NCBI GenBank assembly: GCA_965250285.1
Contig: OZ252299.1
Coordinates: 96,001 to 160,000, forward strand
Length of the DNA stretch: 64,000 nt
Source of the DNA: Myxococcota bacterium
GTDB taxonomy: Bacteria > Myxococcota_A > UBA9160 > UBA4427
Direction: 5' to 3'
Shown: piece by piece, positions 49,751-61,905 of the stretch
Numbering within the stretch: position 1 is the stretch's first letter
Layout: every line of letters begins with the position of its first letter
Position numbers and translations under genes: made by a program
The notes under the pieces: generated by a model
The model's input: only the letters and a program-made list of their open reading frames with translations
What the model was told of the DNA's origin: nothing
The model's database searches: none

Positions 49751-49954
49751 CGACGCGTCCCCGCCATTCGAGCATCGACGCGCATCGACGCGTCGATCAT
49801 GCGCAGCCTTTCCCTCCCGGTTTCGAGGGAAAGACCCGAAGCGAAGCGGAACCTTCTCATCGACAACAGGCATCTCGTTCCCGGTTCTGGGAATCGACAT
49901 GCTTTCACTCGGGGCCGTCTCAAGTCGTCGATGGGCGTCGTCGAAACGCCCACC

Positions 49955-52369
49955 ATGAGCCACGTACCCCCCTGTCGTGAGATGCCGCTCGAGCTGCCCG
50001 TGCTCCCCATGCGCGAGTTCGTGCTCTTCCCCTACATGGTCCTGCCGCTGTTCGTCGCGCGGGATCGCTCGGTCACCGCCATCGAGGATGCCCTCGCTGG
50101 TGATCGGCTGATCCTGCTCGTGACGCAGCGAGACCCGGGCCTCGAAGATCCGACGCCCGATCAGCTGTACGGCATCGGCACGGTCGCGATGGTGATGCGA
50201 TCGATGCGCCTCGCCGACGGCCGACTCAAGGTGCTCGTGCAGGGCCTGTCGCGCGCGCGCATCGACAGCGTGATCGAGGACGACGCCAGCACTTGGGTGC
50301 GGGTCGATCATCTCGAGACCGAAGAGCTCGATACGTGGAGCGTCGAGAGCGAAGCGCTGACCCGCACCGTGCGCTCGCGGGTCGAAGAGCTGCTGCCGCT
50401 CAAGAATCTGCCGCCCGAGGTGCTGTCGATCATCTCGAGCGCCGAGAAGCCTGGCCGCCTCGCCGATCTCGTCGCCTCGAATCTGCGTCTGCGCCTCGAA
50501 GAGGCCCAGGAGATTCTCGAGCTCTCCGATCCGATCGCCAAGCTCCGAAAGGTCGACGCCGTACTGCGGCGCGAGCTCGACGTGTCGAGCATGCAGGCCG
50601 AGATCCAGACCCAGGCGCGCGAGGAGCTGACCCGCGGCCAACGCGAGGTCTTTCTGCGCGAGCAGCTGCGCGCGATCCAGAGCGAGCTCGGCGAGATCGA
50701 CCCGCGCGGCGAAGAGGTCGACGAGTACCGCTACCGCATCGAAGAAGCCGACCTGCCGGGCGAGGCCTACGAAGAGGCCGTCAAGCAGCTGCGCCGACTC
50801 GAGCGGATGCATCCCGACGGTCCCGAGGCCCAGGTCGTGCGCAACTACCTCGACTGGGTGTGCGATCTGCCCTGGGATCGCTGCTCGCCCGACCGACTCG
50901 ACCTCGAGCACGCCCGTGAGATCCTCGACGCCGATCACGCCCACCTCGACGGTGTGAAGGAGCGCATGCTCGAGTTTCTCGGTGTGCGCAAGCTCCGCGA
51001 AGACAGCCGGGGGCCGATTCTCTGCCTCGCCGGTCCGCCGGGCGTCGGCAAGACGAGCCTCGGTCGTTCGATCGCCCGCGCCATGGGCCGCGAGTTCGTG
51101 CGCGTTTCGCTCGGTGGCGTGCGGGACGAGGCCGAGATTCGTGGCCATCGACGCACCTACGTCGGTGCTCTGCCCGGCCGCATCATCCAGGCGATGAAGC
51201 AGGCGGGGACGACGAACCCCGTGATCATGCTCGACGAGATCGACAAGCTCGGCGCAGACTTCCGCGGCGACCCGGCGGCGGCGCTCCTCGAGGTGCTCGA
51301 CCCCGAGCAGAACTCGAAGTTCAGCGATCACTTCATGAACCTGCCCTTCGACCTCTCGAAGGTGCTGTTCATCGCGACGGCCAACATGCTCGAGCCGATC
51401 CCCGGTCCCCTGCGCGATCGCATGGAGGTGATTCGACTGGCGGGCTACACGCCCGAGGAAAAGGTCGAGATCGCCGGACGCTTTCTGATCCCTCGGCAGA
51501 TCACCGAGCACGGGCTCGTGCCGACGCAGCTCGAATGGTCGAAGAACGCGATCGATCTGCTGACCGCGAAGTACACCCACGAGGCCGGCGTGCGAAACCT
51601 CGAGCGCCAGGTCGCGACGGTCTGCCGCAAGGTCGCCCGCAAGGCGGCCGAGGGGGACGACGCTCCGGTTCGCATCACGCAGCGCACCTTGCCCCGATAT
51701 CTGGGGCCGGCCCCCTTCGAAGACGAGCACGACGATCGCGAGCCCGAGATCGGGGTCGTGCAGGGACTCGCGTGGACCGAGGCCGGCGGCGACGTCCTCA
51801 CCCTCGAAGCCAATCTCGCTTCGGGCAAGGGGCTCACGCTGACGGGTCAGCTCGGGGACGTGATGAAGGAATCGGGTCAGACCGCTCACAGCTTCGTGCG
51901 CTCGCTGCTCCGCGAGGTCGATGCCGACGACTCGGTGCTGAGCCGCAACGAGACCCACGTACACGTGCCGGCCGGCGCCACGCCCAAGGACGGTCCCTCG
52001 GCCGGCGTCTCGATCGCCACGGCGATCGTGTCGGTGGCGACCGGCAGCGCGGTACGCCGCGACGTCGCGATGACGGGCGAGATCACGCTGCGAGGCCGCG
52101 TCCTCGCCGTGGGCGGTGTGCGCGAGAAGGCTCTGGCCGCGCTTCGTTCGGGCATTCGCACGATCATCCTGCCCCGGTCGTCGATGAAGGATGTCGAGGA
52201 GATCCCGAAGGATCTGCGCCGCAAGCTCGAGTTCATCCCGGTCGTGCACATGCGCGAGGTGCTCGAACACGCGCTCGTCGATCCGCTGCGCTGGCGGACC
52301 CACCCCGTGCGTTTGCCCCAGGGCGCGCAGTACGTGGCTGGCGCCGCGTCCGTCCGGGAACACGACTGA
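49955..52369 (+). CDS. lon: ATP-dependent protease La
   Basis: GPPGVGKTS, IRGHRRTYVGA, PKDGPSAG. Confidence 0.96.
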   Translation: MSHVPPCREMPLELPVLPMREFVLFPYMVLPLFVARDRSVTAIEDALAGDRLILLVTQRDPGLEDPTPDQLYGIGTVAMVMRSMRLADGRLKVLVQGLSRARIDSVIEDDASTWVRVDHLETEELDTWSVESEALTRTVRSRVEELLPLKNLPPEVLSIISSAEKPGRLADLVASNLRLRLEEAQEILELSDPIAKLRKVDAVLRRELDVSSMQAEIQTQAREELTRGQREVFLREQLRAIQSELGEIDPRGEEVDEYRYRIEEADLPGEAYEEAVKQLRRLERMHPDGPEAQVVRNYLDWVCDLPWDRCSPDRLDLEHAREILDADHAHLDGVKERMLEFLGVRKLREDSRGPILCLAGPPGVGKTSLGRSIARAMGREFVRVSLGGVRDEAEIRGHRRTYVGALPGRIIQAMKQAGTTNPVIMLDEIDKLGADFRGDPAAALLEVLDPEQNSKFSDHFMNLPFDLSKVLFIATANMLEPIPGPLRDRMEVIRLAGYTPEEKVEIAGRFLIPRQITEHGLVPTQLEWSKNAIDLLTAKYTHEAGVRNLERQVATVCRKVARKAAEGDDAPVRITQRTLPRYLGPAPFEDEHDDREPEIGVVQGLAWTEAGGDVLTLEANLASGKGLTLTGQLGDVMKESGQTAHSFVRSLLREVDADDSVLSRNETHVHVPAGATPKDGPSAGVSIATAIVSVATGSAVRRDVAMTGEITLRGRVLAVGGVREKALAALRSGIRTIILPRSSMKDVEEIPKDLRRKLEFIPVVHMREVLEHALVDPLRWRTHPVRLPQGAQYVAGAASVREHD

Positions 52370-52445
52370 TCCAGCCGCCGCCCTTGATCTGAAGATGCAC
52401 ATGCGAGCGACGGGGTGCGTCGGGCCGACGTATCATCCGTCTCCG

Positions 52446-53417
52446 ATGACCCGCCGCACTCCGCAGCGCACCCTCGAAGACCTCGGCGAGTTCGGTCTGA
52501 TCGATCGCATCGAGCGCCGCGCCCGCCGGCTCACCGGGCGTCGCGTGCGCCTCGGGATCGGCGACGACGCGGCGCTGCTGCGACCCGCGCCCGGCTTCGA
52601 ACTCACGGTCACGGCCGACACCGCCGTCGAGGGCGTGCACTTTCGGTTCGAGACCGCATCGGCCCGATCCATCGGTCGACGCGCGTTGGTGGCCAACCTC
52701 TCGGACCTCGCCGCCATGGGCGCGCGTCCGATCGGCTTCACGTGTGCGCTGCAGGCGCCTGCGTCGCTCCCGCTCGCGCGGGTCGACGCGCTCATCGACG
52801 GGCTGCTCAGCGAAGCCGAGATGCACGGCGCACCGCTCGTCGGGGGCAACGTGACGCGGGCGCGCGAGACGTCGCTCGCGATCACCGCGATCGGCGAGGT
52901 CGAGCAGGGCCGCGCCCTTCTGCGATCGGGCCTGCGCGCCGGCGATCGGCTCTACGTGACCGGGCGACTCGGCGCCGCCGCGCTCGCAGTCGCCCGAGCC
53001 GAGGCCCGAGGCGGTCGCATCCGGCACCTCGCCCGGCCCCGTCTCGAAGCGGGGCGGTCGCTGCTGCGATGGGGGCGCTGCTCGGCGTGCATCGACGTGT
53101 CCGACGGGCTCGCGGCCGACCTCGGCCACATGCTCGAGGCCAGCGGGGTCGGCGCCGACGTCGATGCGGCGCGGGTGCCCCGCGCTCGGGGCCTCGGGGC
53201 CGGCGCTCGGTCGCTGGGCCTCGACCCAGAGGCCCTCGCCTTCGCGGGGGGAGAAGACTACGAGCTCGTCTTCGGCCTGCGCCCCGGCCGCGGTCCGTGG
53301 CCCTCGGCGGCGGCGCTCGCACGTCGGCTGGGTACAGCCGCAGCAGAATTCGGCGTCGTCACTTCACGCCGCGGCCTGCGTGGTCTGCCCGATCTCGGCG
53401 GGCACACGCACTTCTGA
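52446..53417 (+). CDS. thiL: Thiamine-monophosphate kinase
   Basis: GEFGLI, GIGDDAA, NLSDLAAMGA, DVSDGL, GGEDYEL. Confidence 0.95.
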   Translation: MTRRTPQRTLEDLGEFGLIDRIERRARRLTGRRVRLGIGDDAALLRPAPGFELTVTADTAVEGVHFRFETASARSIGRRALVANLSDLAAMGARPIGFTCALQAPASLPLARVDALIDGLLSEAEMHGAPLVGGNVTRARETSLAITAIGEVEQGRALLRSGLRAGDRLYVTGRLGAAALAVARAEARGGRIRHLARPRLEAGRSLLRWGRCSACIDVSDGLAADLGHMLEASGVGADVDAARVPRARGLGAGARSLGLDPEALAFAGGEDYELVFGLRPGRGPWPSAAALARRLGTAAAEFGVVTSRRGLRGLPDLGGHTHF

Positions 53418-53501: not shown

Positions 53502-54806
53502 GTGCGCATCACGTTGACGACCAAATTCGTGGTGGGGTCGCTCGTGGTCGCGGGGGGCACCCTCGCGTTCCCAGAGCTGATCCGGTGGTTCGGACTCGCG
53601 TTCGACGCCTGGGGCACGTTCGCCGTCGCGCTCGGCGTGGGCGGTGGGATCGGCTTCTTTCTGTCGCAGATGCTTGGCTCGAAGTTCCAGGCCCTGCGCG
53701 ACCTGACCGACCAGGTGCGCAACGGCGACTTCTCGGCCTCCCAGGCCGAGGTGCCGCTCTCGCGCTTTGCCGACGAGACCGATGACCTCGCCCGCAGTCT
53801 GGGCGGGATGATCGGCCAGCTCCGTGACCTGGTCGAGAACGTGCAGGCGACCGCCGGTTCGGTGACGAGCTCGGCTCAAGGCCTCAATGCCTCGATCGAA
53901 GAGGTGCGCACGAGCGGCCAGGGCATCACCGATGCCATGGGGACCGTTGCTTCGAGCGTCGACAAGCAGCAGGGCATGATCGACGAAGCGGCGAATCAGA
54001 TGCAGGACATCAGCTCGGCCATCGACCAGAACGCAGAGCGCGCTCGCGAGGCATTCGGCTTCGCGGCCGAGGCGAACCAGAAGGCGGGCACCGGCGTCGA
54101 GGTCGCCCAGCTCGCCATCGAGAAGATGCGCAGCGTGTTCGAGCGTGTCGAGCTGACGGGCAACAAGGTCTTCCAGCTCGAAGCGAAGACCCGGCACGTT
54201 CACCAGATCACCGAGATGATCACGAGCGTCGCCCACCGCACGAACCTGCTCTCGCTGAATGCCTCGATCGAGGCGGCGCGCGCGGGCGAGGCGGGGCGCG
54301 GCTTCTCGGTCGTCGCCGACGAGATTCGCAAGCTCTCCGAGAGTGCGGGGCGGAGCGCCGAAGAGATCACGGCGCTCGTCAACGAGATCCAGGCCGATAC
54401 CGACGAGGTCGCCGACGAGATGCGTCAGTCGCGCATGGTGATCGGCGAGGGCCGTGAGGATGTCAACACGATCGCCTCGTCGCTCGAGCAGATCTCGATG
54501 GCCGTCGGCGAGGCCGCGGCGCGATCCGAAGAGATCTTCCACGGCGCCGACTCGCAGAGTCTCAACGCCGACCGCATGGCCGACAACCTCACCGAGATCG
54601 CGAACGTCTCGCGCGGCAACAGCGAAGGTCTCGAGACCGCGTCGCATACCGCGAGCGATCAGCTCTCGAGCATGGCGACGGTCGTCGAGCAGTCGCGCGC
54701 GCTCACGGTGCTCGCCGAAGAGCTGCAGACGACGCTCGAGCGCTTCCGCACGGCCCGCAACGCCGCCGACGCGATCCGCGACGAGTCGGGGGAGGGCGGG
54801 GCATGA
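53502..54806 (+). CDS. Methyl-accepting chemotaxis protein without periplasmic domain (DifA-like)
   Basis: Two adjacent TMs, [30 protein letters not shown]. Confidence 0.9.
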
Positions 54807-55294
54807 GCGAGCAGGCTTCGGCCGCACACAGCGACGAGCGCCTGCTCACCTTCGAGGTGGGTGCGACCATGTACGCCCTGCCCATCGAGGCGGTGCACGA
54901 GGTCGCCGAGGCGCAGCAGGTCAGCTGCGTGCCGGGTCTGCCTACGGCTCAGGCCGGCGTGATGAACTGGAGCGGCGAGGCGTTGCCCATCGTCGCGAAC
55001 CATCTGCTGTTGGCGATCGCCGAGCAAGCCGACGCCGCCGCCGAACAGCCGGAGAGCATCGTCGACGAGCACGTGCTCGTCGTCGCCGAGCGCGCCGACG
55101 CGCCGGCGCGCCTCGGCCTGCCGGTGGACAAGGTGGTGGGCCTGGTCGACGGGGGACGACGCGTCGCCCGGGGCCAGAGACTCGTTCAGGAAAGACGGCC
55201 CATCGAGGGACGGGTCGTTCACGTTCTGGATCCGCGCGAGCTCGTCGCGCGCGCGGGCCGGATCGTGGCCAAGGTGGAGGGCCTCGCCGCATAG
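54803..55294 (+). CDS. cheW: CheW adaptor
   Basis: [31 protein letters not shown]. Confidence 0.85.
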
Positions 55295-55324: not shown

Positions 55325-55696
55325 ATGAAGGCACGAGTTCTGATCGCAGACGACGCTTCGTTCATGCGACAGATGATCCGCGAGATCATCGAGCCCGAAG
55401 GCTATGAGGTCGTGGGCGAGGCCACGAACGGGATCGAGGCCGTCGAGCAGTTCGAGTCGCTGCACCCCGACATCGTGACGATGGACATCGTGATGCCGAA
55501 GCGCTCGGGCATCGACGCCGTCAAGGGCATCCTCGCCCAGCACCCCGACGCCAAGATCGTGATGTGCTCGGCGCTGGGCCAGGAGACGCTCGTGATGGAG
55601 GCGCTCCAGGCCGGGGCGCGCGACTTCATCGTGAAGCCCTTCAAGCCCGACAGCGTAATCTCGACGCTCTCGAAGATCCTCGAGAAGGAGAGCTGA
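55325..55696 (+). CDS. cheY: CheY response regulator
   Basis: DDASFMR, MDIVMP, CSALGQ, KPF. Confidence 0.92.
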   Translation: MKARVLIADDASFMRQMIREIIEPEGYEVVGEATNGIEAVEQFESLHPDIVTMDIVMPKRSGIDAVKGILAQHPDAKIVMCSALGQETLVMEALQAGARDFIVKPFKPDSVISTLSKILEKES

Positions 55697-55699
55697 GAC

Positions 55700-57516
55700 T
55701 TGGCCCTCGACATGGCCAAGTATCACAAGCTCTTCCTCGAAGAGGCCGTCGATCATCTCGGCGAGATCAGCCATGCGCTGCTCGAGCTCGAGAAGGACAT
55801 GGCCTCGACGGAGAGCATCGACGTCATCTTTCGGATGGCGCACAGCATCAAGTCGATGGCCGCTTCGCTCGGCTTCGACTCGGTGACCGAGCTGTCGCAT
55901 CGCCTCGAAGACCGCATGCAGACCGTACGTGCCCGCGCTCGGGTCGCGGACGACGATGAGCTGTCGTTGCTCTTCAAGGGTCTCGAAGGTCTCGAAGCCA
56001 TGGTGGGCGCCATCCGCGACACGGGTGAAGCACCGCCGGGTGATCCGGCCCTGATGGAGGCGCTCTCGCAGCCTGCCGACGCAGCCGATGGCGGCGGCGC
56101 AGGAGACGCCCCCCCAAAAAAAGTCCTGAGCTGACCGGGCCCGAGGCGTCGCACCCGGTCGAAGCAACCGAACCGACGCCCACGGACGAAGACCCGGCCG
56201 TCGCCGCGATTCGTGCAGCGATGGAGGCCGAATTGGCCGGCGCCGACGCGGGGGCGACGCCCGACGCGCCGCCCACCGAGCACGCCTCTGCGGCGCCGAC
56301 CGAAGCGCCGAGCGCTGCCGCGTCCGATGCGGCCGCGAGCGCTCAGCCGCCTCAGCCCACTGCTTCGCTCTCGCCCACCATTCGCGTGCGCACCGAGACC
56401 CTCGATCGGTTCCTCGGCAGCGTGGGGGAGGTGATCCTCAGCTCGAATCAGCTGCGCACCGCGGCCGGTCAGACCGAGGGCAGTGCACAGCTCTCGACGG
56501 GCCTCGACCAGGTCGAGCGCCGCGTGAGCGAGCTGCAGCGCCGCGTGCTCGATCTGCGCACGACACCGCTCACGCGCGTGACCGACCAGCTGCCGCGTAC
56601 GGCGCGCCAGATCGCAGAGCGGCTCGGCAAGAAGGTCGAGGTCGAGATCATCGGCGCCGAGCTCGAGCTCGATCGCTCGATCCTCGACCGTCTGAGCGAA
56701 CCGCTGCTTCACATGGTGCGCAACGCCGTCGACCACGGCATCGAGTCGATCGATACGCGCGTCGGTGCCGGCAAACCCGACACGGGTCGCATCACGATCG
56801 AGGCGCGCCGTCAGAAGGACGACATCCTCATCGACGTGAGCGACGACGGTGGCGGGATCGATCTCGAGGGCGTCAAGCGCCGCGCGATCGATGCCGGCCA
56901 CCTGCACCCCGACCTCGCCGACGACCTGCCAGCCGAAGAGATCGTGCCGCTCATCTTCCGGCCGGGGCTCTCGACGGCGGTCGAGGTCTCGGACGTGTCG
57001 GGCCGCGGCGTCGGCATGGACGCCGTGAAGGCGACGATCGAATCCCTCGGCGGCTCGGTCGAGCTGCGCACGCGCCTGGGTGTGGGCACCACGACGACGC
57101 TTCAGGTGCCGATCACCGCCGCGGTGCAGCGCGTGCTCGTCGTCGGCGTGGCCGACGAACGCGTCGCGCTGCCGATCAGCCGCGTCGAGCGCATTCTCGA
57201 GGTCGAGCCGGGCGCGATCGAAGACGCCGGCGGCGAGTGCTTCGTGCTCATCGACGACGACCCCGTGCTGGTGCTCGATCTCGGTGCGCGTCTGTCGATC
57301 GATTCGGGCCTCGAGAGCGACATCGCCATCCCGCTCGTGATGACGACGCTGCGGGGCGAGCGCGTCGCGCTCAAGGTCGACCGCTTCGTCGGCCAGCAGG
57401 AGATCTACGTGAAGTCGGTCCCCGGGTTGCTCTCGGGGCTTCGACAGCTGGCGGGGCTCACCCTGCTCGACGACGGCAGGCCGGTCTTCTTGATCGACCT
57501 GAACCACCTGGTCTGA
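55700..57516 (+). CDS. cheA: CheA histidine kinase split by a -1 frame change at C7A7 (56109-56122)
   Basis: Hpt (FRMAHSIKS) stops at 56134; -1 frame is open through the linker into HMVRNAVDHG, SGRGVGMD and the CheW-like domain. Confidence 0.9.
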
Positions 57517-57527
57517 GGTTCGAGGCG

Positions 57528-58079
57528 ATGGACGCAGCCGAACTCGACAGAATGCAGGAGCTGACCAGCATCGGCGCCGGTCACGCCGCGAGCGCGTTTG
57601 CGCAGCTCACCGGTCAGCCCTTCTGGATGGGGTTGCCGCGCGTCGCCAAGGGTGAGGAAGGCGCCCTCGCGCCGCAGCTCGTCCTGGCGCGGCGCTGGTC
57701 GACGGGCGTGTTCTTCGAGCTCGACGGATGCCTCGACGCGCTGCTGGGGCTGCTCTTTCACGAGGACGCCAGCGAGGCGGTCGTGCGCCGCATCGTCGGC
57801 GTCGAAGAGGGCGAGATCGATCCGACCTGGATCGAGTCGGCGTTGATGGAGGTCGGGAACATCCTGGCCAGCCACGTCTCGAACGCGATCGCCGATACGC
57901 TCGGCGAGCGGCTGCTGCCCTCGATCCCGATCCTCGCGATGACCGAAGCGGAACGCGCACTGGCCCACGCCCTGCTCGACGGGCCGGGCATCGACACGTT
58001 GCGCGTCGAGTGCGAGCTGCGCGGCGGCGACGGCCAGCTGGGTGGGCTCGTCGTGCTCGTCCCGCGACAGGCCTGGTAG
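57528..58079 (+). CDS. cheC: CheC-like phosphatase (DifG-like)
   Basis: ELTSIGAGHAA, SALMEVGNILAS. Confidence 0.88.
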   Translation: MDAAELDRMQELTSIGAGHAASAFAQLTGQPFWMGLPRVAKGEEGALAPQLVLARRWSTGVFFELDGCLDALLGLLFHEDASEAVVRRIVGVEEGEIDPTWIESALMEVGNILASHVSNAIADTLGERLLPSIPILAMTEAERALAHALLDGPGIDTLRVECELRGGDGQLGGLVVLVPRQAW

Positions 58080-59807: not shown

Positions 59808-60560
59808 ATGGGTCCGGATCGACTCAAAGCGCTGCTCGAGGCCGTTCAGGCCGGCGAGGTCGACGTCGCCTCGGCGGTGGGTGAGCTCTCGCGACTGCAC
59901 GTCGTCGAGACGCCGGGCGCGCGCGTCGATACGCATCGGGCGCTTCGGCAGGGCATTCCCGAGGTCGTATTCGGCCAGGGGAAGAGCGCCGACCAGATCG
60001 TCGACGTGATCCGCGCCCTCGAAGACGTCGGTCAGCCGGTGCTCGTGACGCGCGTCGGCCGCGAGCTGGCCGAGGCCGTGCTCGAGAAGGCGCCCGAGGG
60101 TGTCTACGAGGCCGAGGCGCGTCTGCTCTGGTACGGGCCCGACGCGCCCGAGAACCAGGGGCGCGGTGTGATTGGCGTGATCTCGGCGGGCTCGTCGGAT
60201 CGTCCCGTCGCCTTCGAGGCGGCGCGCGTGGCCCACTACTTCGGCAACGAAGTCGACGTGATCGAAGACGTGGGTGTGGCCGGCCTGCACCGCATTCTCT
60301 CGGTGCAGGATCGACTGCGGGCCGCTCGCGTGCTGATCGTGGTCGCGGGCATGGAGGGCGCGCTGCCCGCCGTGGTGGGTGGCCTCGTGGACAAGCCGGT
60401 GATCGCGGTGCCGACCAGCATCGGCTACGGCGCAGCCCTCGGCGGTCTGACCGCGCTGCTCGGCATGCTGACGAGCTGTGCTTCGAACGTGACGGTCGTC
60501 AACATCGACAACGGATTCGGGGCCGCGCATGTCGCGACGCTCATCAACCGCCTCGCGTAG
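59808..60560 (+). CDS. larB: Nickel-pincer cofactor biosynthesis protein LarB
   Basis: PEVVFGQGK, DVGVAGLHR, AGMEGALP, VVNIDNGFGAA. Confidence 0.93.
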   Translation: MGPDRLKALLEAVQAGEVDVASAVGELSRLHVVETPGARVDTHRALRQGIPEVVFGQGKSADQIVDVIRALEDVGQPVLVTRVGRELAEAVLEKAPEGVYEAEARLLWYGPDAPENQGRGVIGVISAGSSDRPVAFEAARVAHYFGNEVDVIEDVGVAGLHRILSVQDRLRAARVLIVVAGMEGALPAVVGGLVDKPVIAVPTSIGYGAALGGLTALLGMLTSCASNVTVVNIDNGFGAAHVATLINRLA

Positions 60561-60561
60561 C

Positions 60562-61905
60562 GTGGGGTCGAACGGCGTCGCGCCCGCGCGTCCGCTGCAC
60601 CTCGACGCTTCGGCGGGGATGGCGGGCAACATGTTTCTGGGGGCGCTGCTCGATGCGGGCCTCTCGCGCAAGGCGCTCGACGCCGAACTCGCAGCGCTGC
60701 CCCTCGAGTTTCGAATCAAGGTGTCGCGCGTCGAGCGGGGCGGCTTCGCCGCCCGCTACGTCGACGTGGTGATCCCGGGACAGAAGCGTCGCAAGCGCAA
60801 GCAGAAGCCGAAGCGCGACCCCGATCCTGCGTCTTCGCACTCGCACTCGCACTCGCATGAACACACCGATGACGGGCATGCGCACGATCACGCGCACGAC
60901 GAGCACCATCTGAGCCCCCACGGCCATGGTCGCACGTGGCGCGAGATCGAGAAGCTGCTCGGCCGCACGAAGCTGCGGCCGACGGTGCGCGACAAGGCGC
61001 TCGGCATCTTCGAGGGGCTCGCGCGCGCCGAGGCGAGCGTGCACGGCCGGACGCTCGAAACCGTGCACTTTCACGAGGTCGGGATGGTCGACGCCATCGT
61101 CGACGTCACGGCGGCGGCGGCTGGGCTCGAGCTGATGGGGATCGGGCGCGTCACCTGCTCGCCCGTCGGCGTCGGACACGGCTTCGTCGATACCGCGCAC
61201 GGCCGGCTATCGGTGCCGACACCGGCGACCCTCGCGCTGCTCGAGGGCATCCCCACGCAACCGATCGACGTTGCCTGGGAGACGATCACACCGACGGGTG
61301 CAGCGATCCTGCGCGAGCTCGTCGACAGCTTCGTGCCGTGGCCCGGCCTCGTCATGGAGCGGGTCGGGATCGGTGCGGGCCGAGACCGGCCCGGTGCGAC
61401 GCCGAACGTCGTGCGGGCCATCGTCGGCGCCCCGAGTGCGGGTGTGTCGACCGATCGCATCGTGGTGATCGAGACCAACATCGACGATCTCGTGCCCGAG
61501 CACTTCGACTACGCCCTCGAACGCCTCATGGCCGCCGGTGCGGTGGACGTCTCGATCCAACACGTCCAGATGAAGAAGAACCGACCGGGCTTCTTGTTGC
61601 GTGTGCTCTGCCCTCCTGCTGCACGCGACGCGGTGGCCCACACCCTCTTCGCCGAGACCAGCGCGATCGGCCTGCGTCATCAGGAATGGGATCGCATCGT
61701 GCTCGAGCGCACGGTCCGTCGCGTCGATACGCCTTGGGGTCGGATCCGGGTCAAGGAGGTCCGTGCGCCCGACGGGTCGCCGAGCTTCAGCCCCGAGTAC
61801 GACGACTGCCGCAAGGCGGCGAAGAAGTCGGGTGTCGCGTTGCGTGAGATCGTTCGTGAGGCCGAGGCACGTGCGCGTGAGGCGTTCGGGAGAGGGGCGG
61901 CATGA
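60562..61905 (+). CDS. larC: Nickel insertion protein LarC with His-rich insert
   Basis: GMAGNMFLGAL, VHFHEVG, ETNIDD, MKKNRPG, PEYDDC. Confidence 0.93.
   Translation: MGSNGVAPARPLHLDASAGMAGNMFLGALLDAGLSRKALDAELAALPLEFRIKVSRVERGGFAARYVDVVIPGQKRRKRKQKPKRDPDPASSHSHSHSHEHTDDGHAHDHAHDEHHLSPHGHGRTWREIEKLLGRTKLRPTVRDKALGIFEGLARAEASVHGRTLETVHFHEVGMVDAIVDVTAAAAGLELMGIGRVTCSPVGVGHGFVDTAHGRLSVPTPATLALLEGIPTQPIDVAWETITPTGAAILRELVDSFVPWPGLVMERVGIGAGRDRPGATPNVVRAIVGAPSAGVSTDRIVVIETNIDDLVPEHFDYALERLMAAGAVDVSIQHVQMKKNRPGFLLRVLCPPAARDAVAHTLFAETSAIGLRHQEWDRIVLERTVRRVDTPWGRIRVKEVRAPDGSPSFSPEYDDCRKAAKKSGVALREIVREAEARAREAFGRGAA

Follow-up and report, generated by a model that had tools for sequence, protein, structure and literature searches.

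The chemosensory kinase gene cheA in the 64,000-nt window analysed here, a stretch of a Myxococcota genome, is divided between two reading frames, and this division is very probably a real programmed recoding site that is found across an uncultured Myxococcota class, whichever of two mechanisms operates it. At the locus studied, the sequence points to a -1 ribosomal frameshift as the probable mechanism, by which a single gene would yield both a 144-aa free Hpt domain and a 605-aa CheA.

A cheA gene divided between two frames

The gene order mcp-cheW-cheY-cheA-cheC around the split kinase (Table 1) is kept in all 34 loci for which full flanks are available. The Hpt domain occupies residues 9-106 of the 144-aa frame-0 product, and the 3' end of this frame reads CCA AAA AAA GTC CTG AGC TGA. 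In the -1 frame an open stretch runs from 56044 up to the stop at 57514-57516; it contains H-kinase_dim, HATPase_c and CheW domains. Counted across both frames, the CheA domain set (Hpt, dimerisation, HATPase_c and CheW) and the catalytic motifs are complete, while a Pfam domain search gave no match to a P2 domain in either frame. A slip at 56116-56122 is predicted to join 141 and 464 residues into a protein of 605 aa.

An earlier note, made from the sequence of this DNA, had proposed that the -1 frame runs without interruption into the kinase core and that the break falls in the linker after the Hpt domain, and the domain matches in both frames bear this out. The elements of the signal that it described are all in place: AGGAG, a 10-nt gap, C7A7, the TGA at 56132 and a stem with the core GACCGGG/CCCGGTC at 56133-56160. 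The locus has two of the features by which bacterial -1 frameshift genes of the dnaX/IS3 type are recognised, namely an in-phase X_XXY_YYZ heptamer and an overlapping open -1 frame encoding conserved domains. The source genome carries the anti-SD sequence CCTCC at its 16S 3' end, and it encodes both tRNA-Lys CTT and tRNA-Lys TTT.

Table 1. Features of the che operon and of the predicted recoding signal (window coordinates).
Feature	Position	Strand	Remarks
MCP gene, 434 aa	53502..54806	+	MCPsignal, weak HAMP; two N-terminal hydrophobic segments and short loop, read from sequence
cheW	54803..55294	+	Pfam CheW
cheY, single-domain response regulator	55325..55696	+	Pfam Response_reg; best NCBIfam match CheY_Halo, below cut-off
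cheA frame 0, Hpt (P1) and short linker, 144 aa, predicted free Hpt	55700..56134	+	TTG start; ends PPKKVLS*
SD-like AGGAG internal to cheA, predicted stimulator	56101..56105	+	10 nt before heptamer; duplex -7.4 kcal/mol
Slippery heptamer A_AAA_AAA (CCA AAA AAA)	56116..56122	+	preceded by C7 at 56109-56115
cheA -1 frame: Ala/Pro-rich linker, dimerisation (P3), ATPase (P4), CheW-like (P5)	56122..57516	+	
3' stem-loop GCU-GACCGGG / CCCGGUC-AGC, predicted stimulator	56130..56165	+	7-10 nt past heptamer
Frame-0 stop TGA	56132..56134	+	9 nt past A-run
cheC-like phosphatase gene	57528..58079	+	Pfam CheC; NCBIfam CheC_Thtogales below cut-off

The A-run is rare in its genomic setting, as only 24 A/T runs of 7 or more occur in the 6.25-Mb genome, which has 68.6% GC. 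In long ORFs of high GC3, lysine is encoded by AAA 1500 times versus 25418 times by AAG, and only 3 of 1120 Lys-Lys pairs are written AAA-AAA, which confirms the earlier remark that AAA AAA is atypical here. Among other A6G or A7+ runs genome-wide one more site was flagged, at genome position 4062207; the three forward frames at this site and at two unflagged runs revealed no convincing split gene.

Conservation of the frame break among relatives

We searched 41 relatives, 151 genomes of the class and 201 of the phylum, in addition to a collection scan, and analysed 126 distinct loci containing both halves of the gene, 92 of them in a first set and 34 in a second. The first set was reduced from 104 by removing 9 duplicate loci and 3 without Hpt, and the second from 77 by removing 40 that were duplicates and 3 in which Hpt or core was missing; the distant CheAs L153-L160 were excluded. 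The earlier note had named orthologues as a test of the break, and they uphold it. Across two orders, the kinase core lies in the -1 frame in 106 of the 126 orthologous loci, in frame in 18 and at +1 in 2, and all 106 loci with a -1 offset carry A_AAA_AAA in frame-0 phase, with A_AAA_AAG found in none. The run is A7 in 58 of these loci, A8 in 15, A9 in 12, A10 in 20 and A11 in one. Every one of the 58 A7 runs lies in the only phase that is compatible, a count that overstates independence because run phase is partly inherited, and all 15 A8 runs are compatibly placed as well. Linkers of in-frame genes are free of any run above 3 A in 16 of 18 cases. Among the first 92 loci the break is present in 42 of 57 genera in two orders; within the second order it occurs in 8 of 16 loci, at about 45% core identity.

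The earlier note had proposed two overlapping slippery heptamers, of which A_AAA_AAA is the one kept by the relatives. C_CCA_AAA was rejected as a conserved site: across 76 loci, each of the two positions that precede the last heptamer is occupied by C only 55-57% of the time.

We used a quick tree for the first set and FastTree for all 126 rows, and the tree is unrooted. At least 6 changes of frame state are forced by the starred branches in the first 92 loci, the best tree has 11, and 13 are counted with all 126 rows. The in-frame genes are scattered on this unrooted tree, which is most simply explained by repeated loss of an old site.

The position at which the short product ends was also compared. 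The commonest distance from the A-run to the frame-0 stop is 9 nt (29 of 76 loci), and the tail past the slip site varies from 1 to 43 codons across loci. Among the best 120 short homologues in the protein collection, KK occurs after residue 105 in 117 and before it in none, and 81 have KK followed by exactly three residues. In family f13 of the second order (L051, L053, L054, L057-L059, L062 and L063) the frame-0 stop is found 77-87 nt past the run, within the start of the dimerisation region, so that the short product would have a tail of about 26-29 residues.

Two in-frame cheA genes, L019 (A8) and L177 (A10), still carry an A-run in the linker. A -1 slip would reach a stop two codons past the run in L019, which has kept an SD (-6.6) and a stem, and five codons past the run in L177. 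These genes either have a reversed layout, like that of E. coli dnaX, or contain a one-base homopolymer error. At L085 (A10) and L178 (A7) the core lies at +1, and the usual layout would be restored by one extra A; in L178 a 13-bp stem accompanies a strong SD (-10). The latter two loci are likely assembly slips or length variants.

No orthologue was found outside the class at E 1e-80 in the phylum sample of 200 genomes. An in-frame query matched one of 80 genomes outside the class at 1e-62, and this match is a different, intact CheA with two Hpt domains. The CheC query matched 0 of 80 genomes outside the class in a search that had no positive control.

Integrity of the sequence and of the kinase

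The C7A7 tract is identical, with 0 gaps, in contigs from three runs of one study, possibly the window's own source. In a contig from another study, set apart by 47 differing letters and an in-frame deletion of 6 nt, the run is A8 and the -1 layout is the same. The extra C or A that the earlier note had considered as a possible homopolymer error does not appear in any of these contigs, nor did we see run-length variants among those compared, although contigs drop rare variants. In 76 loci the catalytic motifs are kept (His motif in 70, N-box in 71, G1 in 68 and G2 in 76) and internal stops number 0.

Putative stimulatory elements and the length of the A-run

SD pairing across the loci is strongest just upstream of the slip site, and in 30 of 42 genera the SD window there outscores upstream control windows from the same locus; an SD-like 4-mer within 22 nt is absent in 20 of the 42. 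The presence of these elements varies with run length. Short runs (A7-8) are accompanied by an SD in 58 of 73 loci and by 3' structure in 59 of 73, compared with 8 and 10, respectively, of the 33 loci with long runs (A9-11). Both elements occur together in 48 of 73 short-run and 5 of 33 long-run loci, and neither in 4 of 73 and 20 of 33. At the level of genera, a strong SD is found in 18 of 23 short-run units and 4 of 20 long-run units.

In a held-out set of 30 loci, the structure z-score was -2.46 for short and -0.74 for long runs (p 0.001), with upstream controls at -0.58 and -0.51, while the SD difference reached only p 0.066. In seven phylogenetically independent pairs, SD differed in the expected direction in 5.9 and in the opposite direction in 0.0 (median p 0.03), and there was no significant hairpin difference (4.0 the same way, 1.1 opposite, median p 0.375).

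Folding z-scores average -1.2 to -1.35 in windows that start 0-6 nt 3' of the site and are close to 0 upstream and further away, and no 5' hairpin signal was seen in windows upstream of the run. A structure signal that lies 3' of the site suits the ribosome and not RNA polymerase. Stimulatory structures are typically found 5-9 nt downstream of a shift site. The best-kept stem in our data, from one genus, begins further off, 13 nt downstream; pairing of its 9 bp holds in 199 of 207 cells, and 2 of the 9 pairs show compensatory changes. Where a short-run locus has an SD, the gap is 7-8 nt in 40 of 58 cases and 10-14 nt in 16 of 58, mostly below the 9-14 nt that the excerpted text of PMC5009743 gives for -1 shifts.

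The locus studied, whose gap is 10 nt, belongs to the short, stimulated kind, with an SD of -7.4 and a best 45-nt window of z -2.89. The suggestion in the earlier note that SD and 3' stem act as stimulators is supported in part: both elements are enriched at the expected places and at short-run loci, but the stem taken alone is borderline at this locus (z -1.24 for a 50-nt window and -2.16 for one of 38 nt).

Probable mechanism of recoding

For the locus studied we favour ribosomal frameshifting, in which two tRNA-Lys would slip in tandem on AAA AAA, back one base, helped by SD-16S pairing and by the 3' stem. AAA may be used in place of AAG because tRNA-Lys(CUU) would read AAG well; a tRNA with a CUU anticodon is expected to pair well with AAG and so to lower shifting, but AAG motifs nonetheless persist in species that have such a tRNA (PMC4066793, as excerpted). 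Unshifted ribosomes would terminate three codons on and release the Hpt domain, probably in excess over CheA. In the excerpted literature, A_AAA_AAA is listed among sites of ribosomal frameshifting, whereas transcriptional slippage is linked to An runs with n>7 (PMC3711429), and in E. coli A_AAA_AAA is a weaker shift site than A_AAA_AAG (PMC5009743). Relatives that have A9-11 and lack stimulators probably reach the same outcome by means of the longer, intrinsically slippery run. In E. coli reporters with the chelatase cassette, A7 shifts 10%, A9 40% and A11 63% (PMC3711429); a yield that rises with run length would explain long runs without stimulators, although polymerase slippage is equally possible at those loci.

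Programmed transcriptional slippage, in which RNA polymerase would add one A and the longer mRNA would encode the full CheA, predicts the same two products and is an unlikely, though the best surviving, alternative at the locus studied. It would suit the 33 of 106 loci with A9-11, 20 of which have neither SD nor 3' structure, and it is known that runs of 9 A slip in bacteria and that Thermus dnaX uses slippage (PMC5009743, excerpt). The +1 loci L085 and L178 could also be rescued by the addition of two A. The run studied, however, is A7, the commonest length (58 of 106) and one below the n>7 quoted in the excerpts of PMC3711429; an A/T run longer than 7-8, the mark by which slippage sites are recognised, occurs in 33 of 106 relatives and not at this locus. 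Also against slippage by the polymerase are the observations that A7 and A8 are never in a phase incompatible with tandem tRNA slippage, that the structure signal is 3' and not 5' of the run, and that SD presence tracks short runs.

Phase variation, in which the A tract would change length at replication and cells would toggle CheA off and on, is very unlikely. L019 and L177, which are in frame, and L085 and L178, at +1, could be such length variants. Against this, 106 of 126 assemblies would all have to be caught in one off state, always -1, the contigs compared contain no length variant (with the reservation about rare variants given above), and the SD and stem would be left without a role.

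A split kinase made of two separately initiated genes, in which translation of Hpt would begin at 55700 and that of the core, possibly through translational coupling, at ATG 56221 or at a GTG, is if anything still less probable. The ATG at 56221 is present, some ATG, GTG or TTG in the core frame can be found in 86 of 106 loci, and a split CheA functions in R. sphaeroides (PMC6829392, excerpt). Before the core, on the other hand, 94 of 106 loci have no ATG in the core frame and 20 of 106 no ATG, GTG or TTG, and a start combined with an SD of -5 kcal/mol or better is found in only 19 of 106. The positions of possible starts are scattered across loci and the ATG at 56221 has no SD-like motif, which weakens the objection, raised in the earlier note itself, that the 3' part might be translated only from this start. 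Separate initiation also leaves unexplained the fixed -1 offset, the A-run and the loss of the run in fused genes.

Finally, C7A7 is an error-prone homopolymer in a genome known from a single-contig assembly, but assembly error or pseudogene decay as the cause of the split is hardly credible and can be set aside, because the same break is conserved in 106 loci with core identity down to about 44%, the catalytic motifs are intact on both sides of it and the contigs agree.

Possible role of the free Hpt domain

If the -1 frameshift operates as proposed, the CheA core would phosphorylate the free Hpt in trans, and Hpt-phosphate could serve CheY and other regulators as a diffusible phosphate buffer or carrier. 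The pathway would be Dif-like, in a cell that has type IV pili and in which no flagellin was found. According to the excerpted sources, P1 receives its phosphate in trans within the CheA dimer (PMC12767644), and R. sphaeroides has a stand-alone His-domain protein that is the substrate of a distinct kinase (PMC6829392). As trans phosphorylation of P1 is known, a free P1 would plausibly be a substrate and might hold or pass on phosphate. Ultrasensitivity can arise from split kinases under a phosphatase condition (PMC3591291, excerpt), which is not shown for the cheA studied.

With the query used, no separate Hpt gene was found in 10 of 10 in-frame genomes. This suggests that cells can do without the free Hpt, which may arise as a by-product when the CheA level is titrated. 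The variable tail past the slip site, 1 to 43 codons long, likewise speaks against a vital role. In our judgement a role as phosphate buffer or carrier is slightly favoured, and mere titration of the CheA level has a little under an even chance. We tentatively put forward a wider reading, which we think possible although the odds are somewhat against it: that this is the first recoded chemosensory kinase, producing a CheA with tethered P1 together with excess free P1 as a phosphate buffer or shuttle. Evolution might have tuned the ratio by several routes: ribosomal shifting at A7-8 runs that have SD and stem, possibly transcriptional slippage at A9-11 runs that lack stimulators, a reversed layout, or complete fusion. 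The free P1 could in this way provide split-kinase dynamics in a Dif-like pathway without a second gene.

Genomic context and significance

The source genome has a second cheA at 6100099-6102165, a single open frame of 759 codons followed by a cheW-like gene, with no A4 run within its first kilobase. No flagellin was found in this genome, which is 95% complete; it contains a tRNA-Sec as well as five PilT-family genes that score above cut-off. Immediately 5' of the operon, window positions 49799-53417 hold what we take to be a Lon-like protease gene, then a thiL-like AIRS-fold gene. Elsewhere in the window, 59808-60560 and 60529-61905 are presumably LarB-like and LarC-like (the latter with a His-rich insert), that is, nickel-pincer cofactor genes.

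Few chromosomal bacterial genes with programmed frameshifts are known. With over 100 natural variants, recurrent losses and what look like two kinds of signal, this class-wide case amounts to a natural experiment, and the variants bear on the trade-off between SD, stem and run length as well as on switching between ribosomal and transcriptional mechanisms among lineages. It also suggests a new means of setting kinase-to-phosphocarrier stoichiometry. The split halves are annotated as 'Hpt domain-containing proteins' or truncated CheA, and signalling inventories of this lineage therefore miscount them.

The author of the earlier note did not know of recoding described for CheA, and our targeted full-text literature searches likewise gave no report of a recoded cheA; some supplementary tables of PMC3711429 and PMC4066793 fell outside these searches and could list a cheA cluster. 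'CheA' has 0 matches in the main text and two supplements of PMC3711429 and in the first 300,000 of the 449,034 characters of PMC5009743.

Comparison with known systems

A close parallel in terms of signal is E. coli dnaX, in which, as proposed for cheA, an A-rich heptamer is read by two tRNA-Lys and is accompanied by an upstream SD and a 3' stem, and whose tau and gamma products share a common N-terminus, as predicted for cheA (PMC5009743, excerpted text, for this and what follows on dnaX lineages). E. coli dnaX uses a -1 frameshift and Thermus dnaX slippage, and the relatives of the cheA studied possibly differ in mechanism too; the dnaX layout is reversible, with reversed candidates such as Chlorobium, and cheA of L019 and L177 looks reversed. 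The systems differ in the heptamer, A_AAA_AAG in E. coli dnaX versus A_AAA_AAA in cheA, and in outcome, as the shift in cheA would give the long product, which is opposite to E. coli dnaX and the same as in the reversed candidates. In addition, cheA is a signalling kinase gene, and its SD spacing is often 7-8 nt.

The magnesium/cobalt chelatase genes (Antonov et al. 2013, PMC3711429, as excerpted) shift by -1 at A7-A11, with longer runs being more efficient, and they also have fused in-frame homologues. They represent a different protein family and were tested with reporters, whereas the cheA site is known from sequence. In E. coli copA/CopA(Z) (Meydan et al. 2017; Drees et al. 2017, going by their titles in PMC7558416), one gene yields through frameshifting both the complete protein and a small partner in free form. 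The site is another one, and copA serves metal transport. The small partner of copA is reportedly the N-terminal domain, and the shift is said to make the short product.

Division of a CheA between two polypeptides is known from CheA3/CheA4 of R. sphaeroides, in which the His domain is phosphorylated in trans by a separate core (PMC6829392, excerpt). These are two genes with no full-length form, whereas the cheA studied is predicted to give free P1 beside an intact CheA. Its short product has no phosphatase domain, unlike the CheA3/CheA4 system, and a core start combined with an SD, by which a split of this type would be recognised, occurs in only 19 of 106 loci.

By gene set and order, the operon matches the Dif system of M. 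xanthus (DifA, DifC, DifD, DifE and DifG), which comprises the same MCP-CheW-CheY-CheA-CheC set with locus tags in the same order (PMC3945109, excerpt), and it is called Dif-like here; a homologue search with the MCP returned no protein named Dif. DifA, at 413 aa, is a small MCP with two TM segments like the MCP studied, whereas DifE is a single protein of 857 aa with a response-regulator-binding P2, in contrast to the split CheA, in which no P2 was found (PMC3945109, same excerpt). DifD and DifG form a phosphate sink, and sinks set the output in such pathways (PMC12802240, excerpted text).
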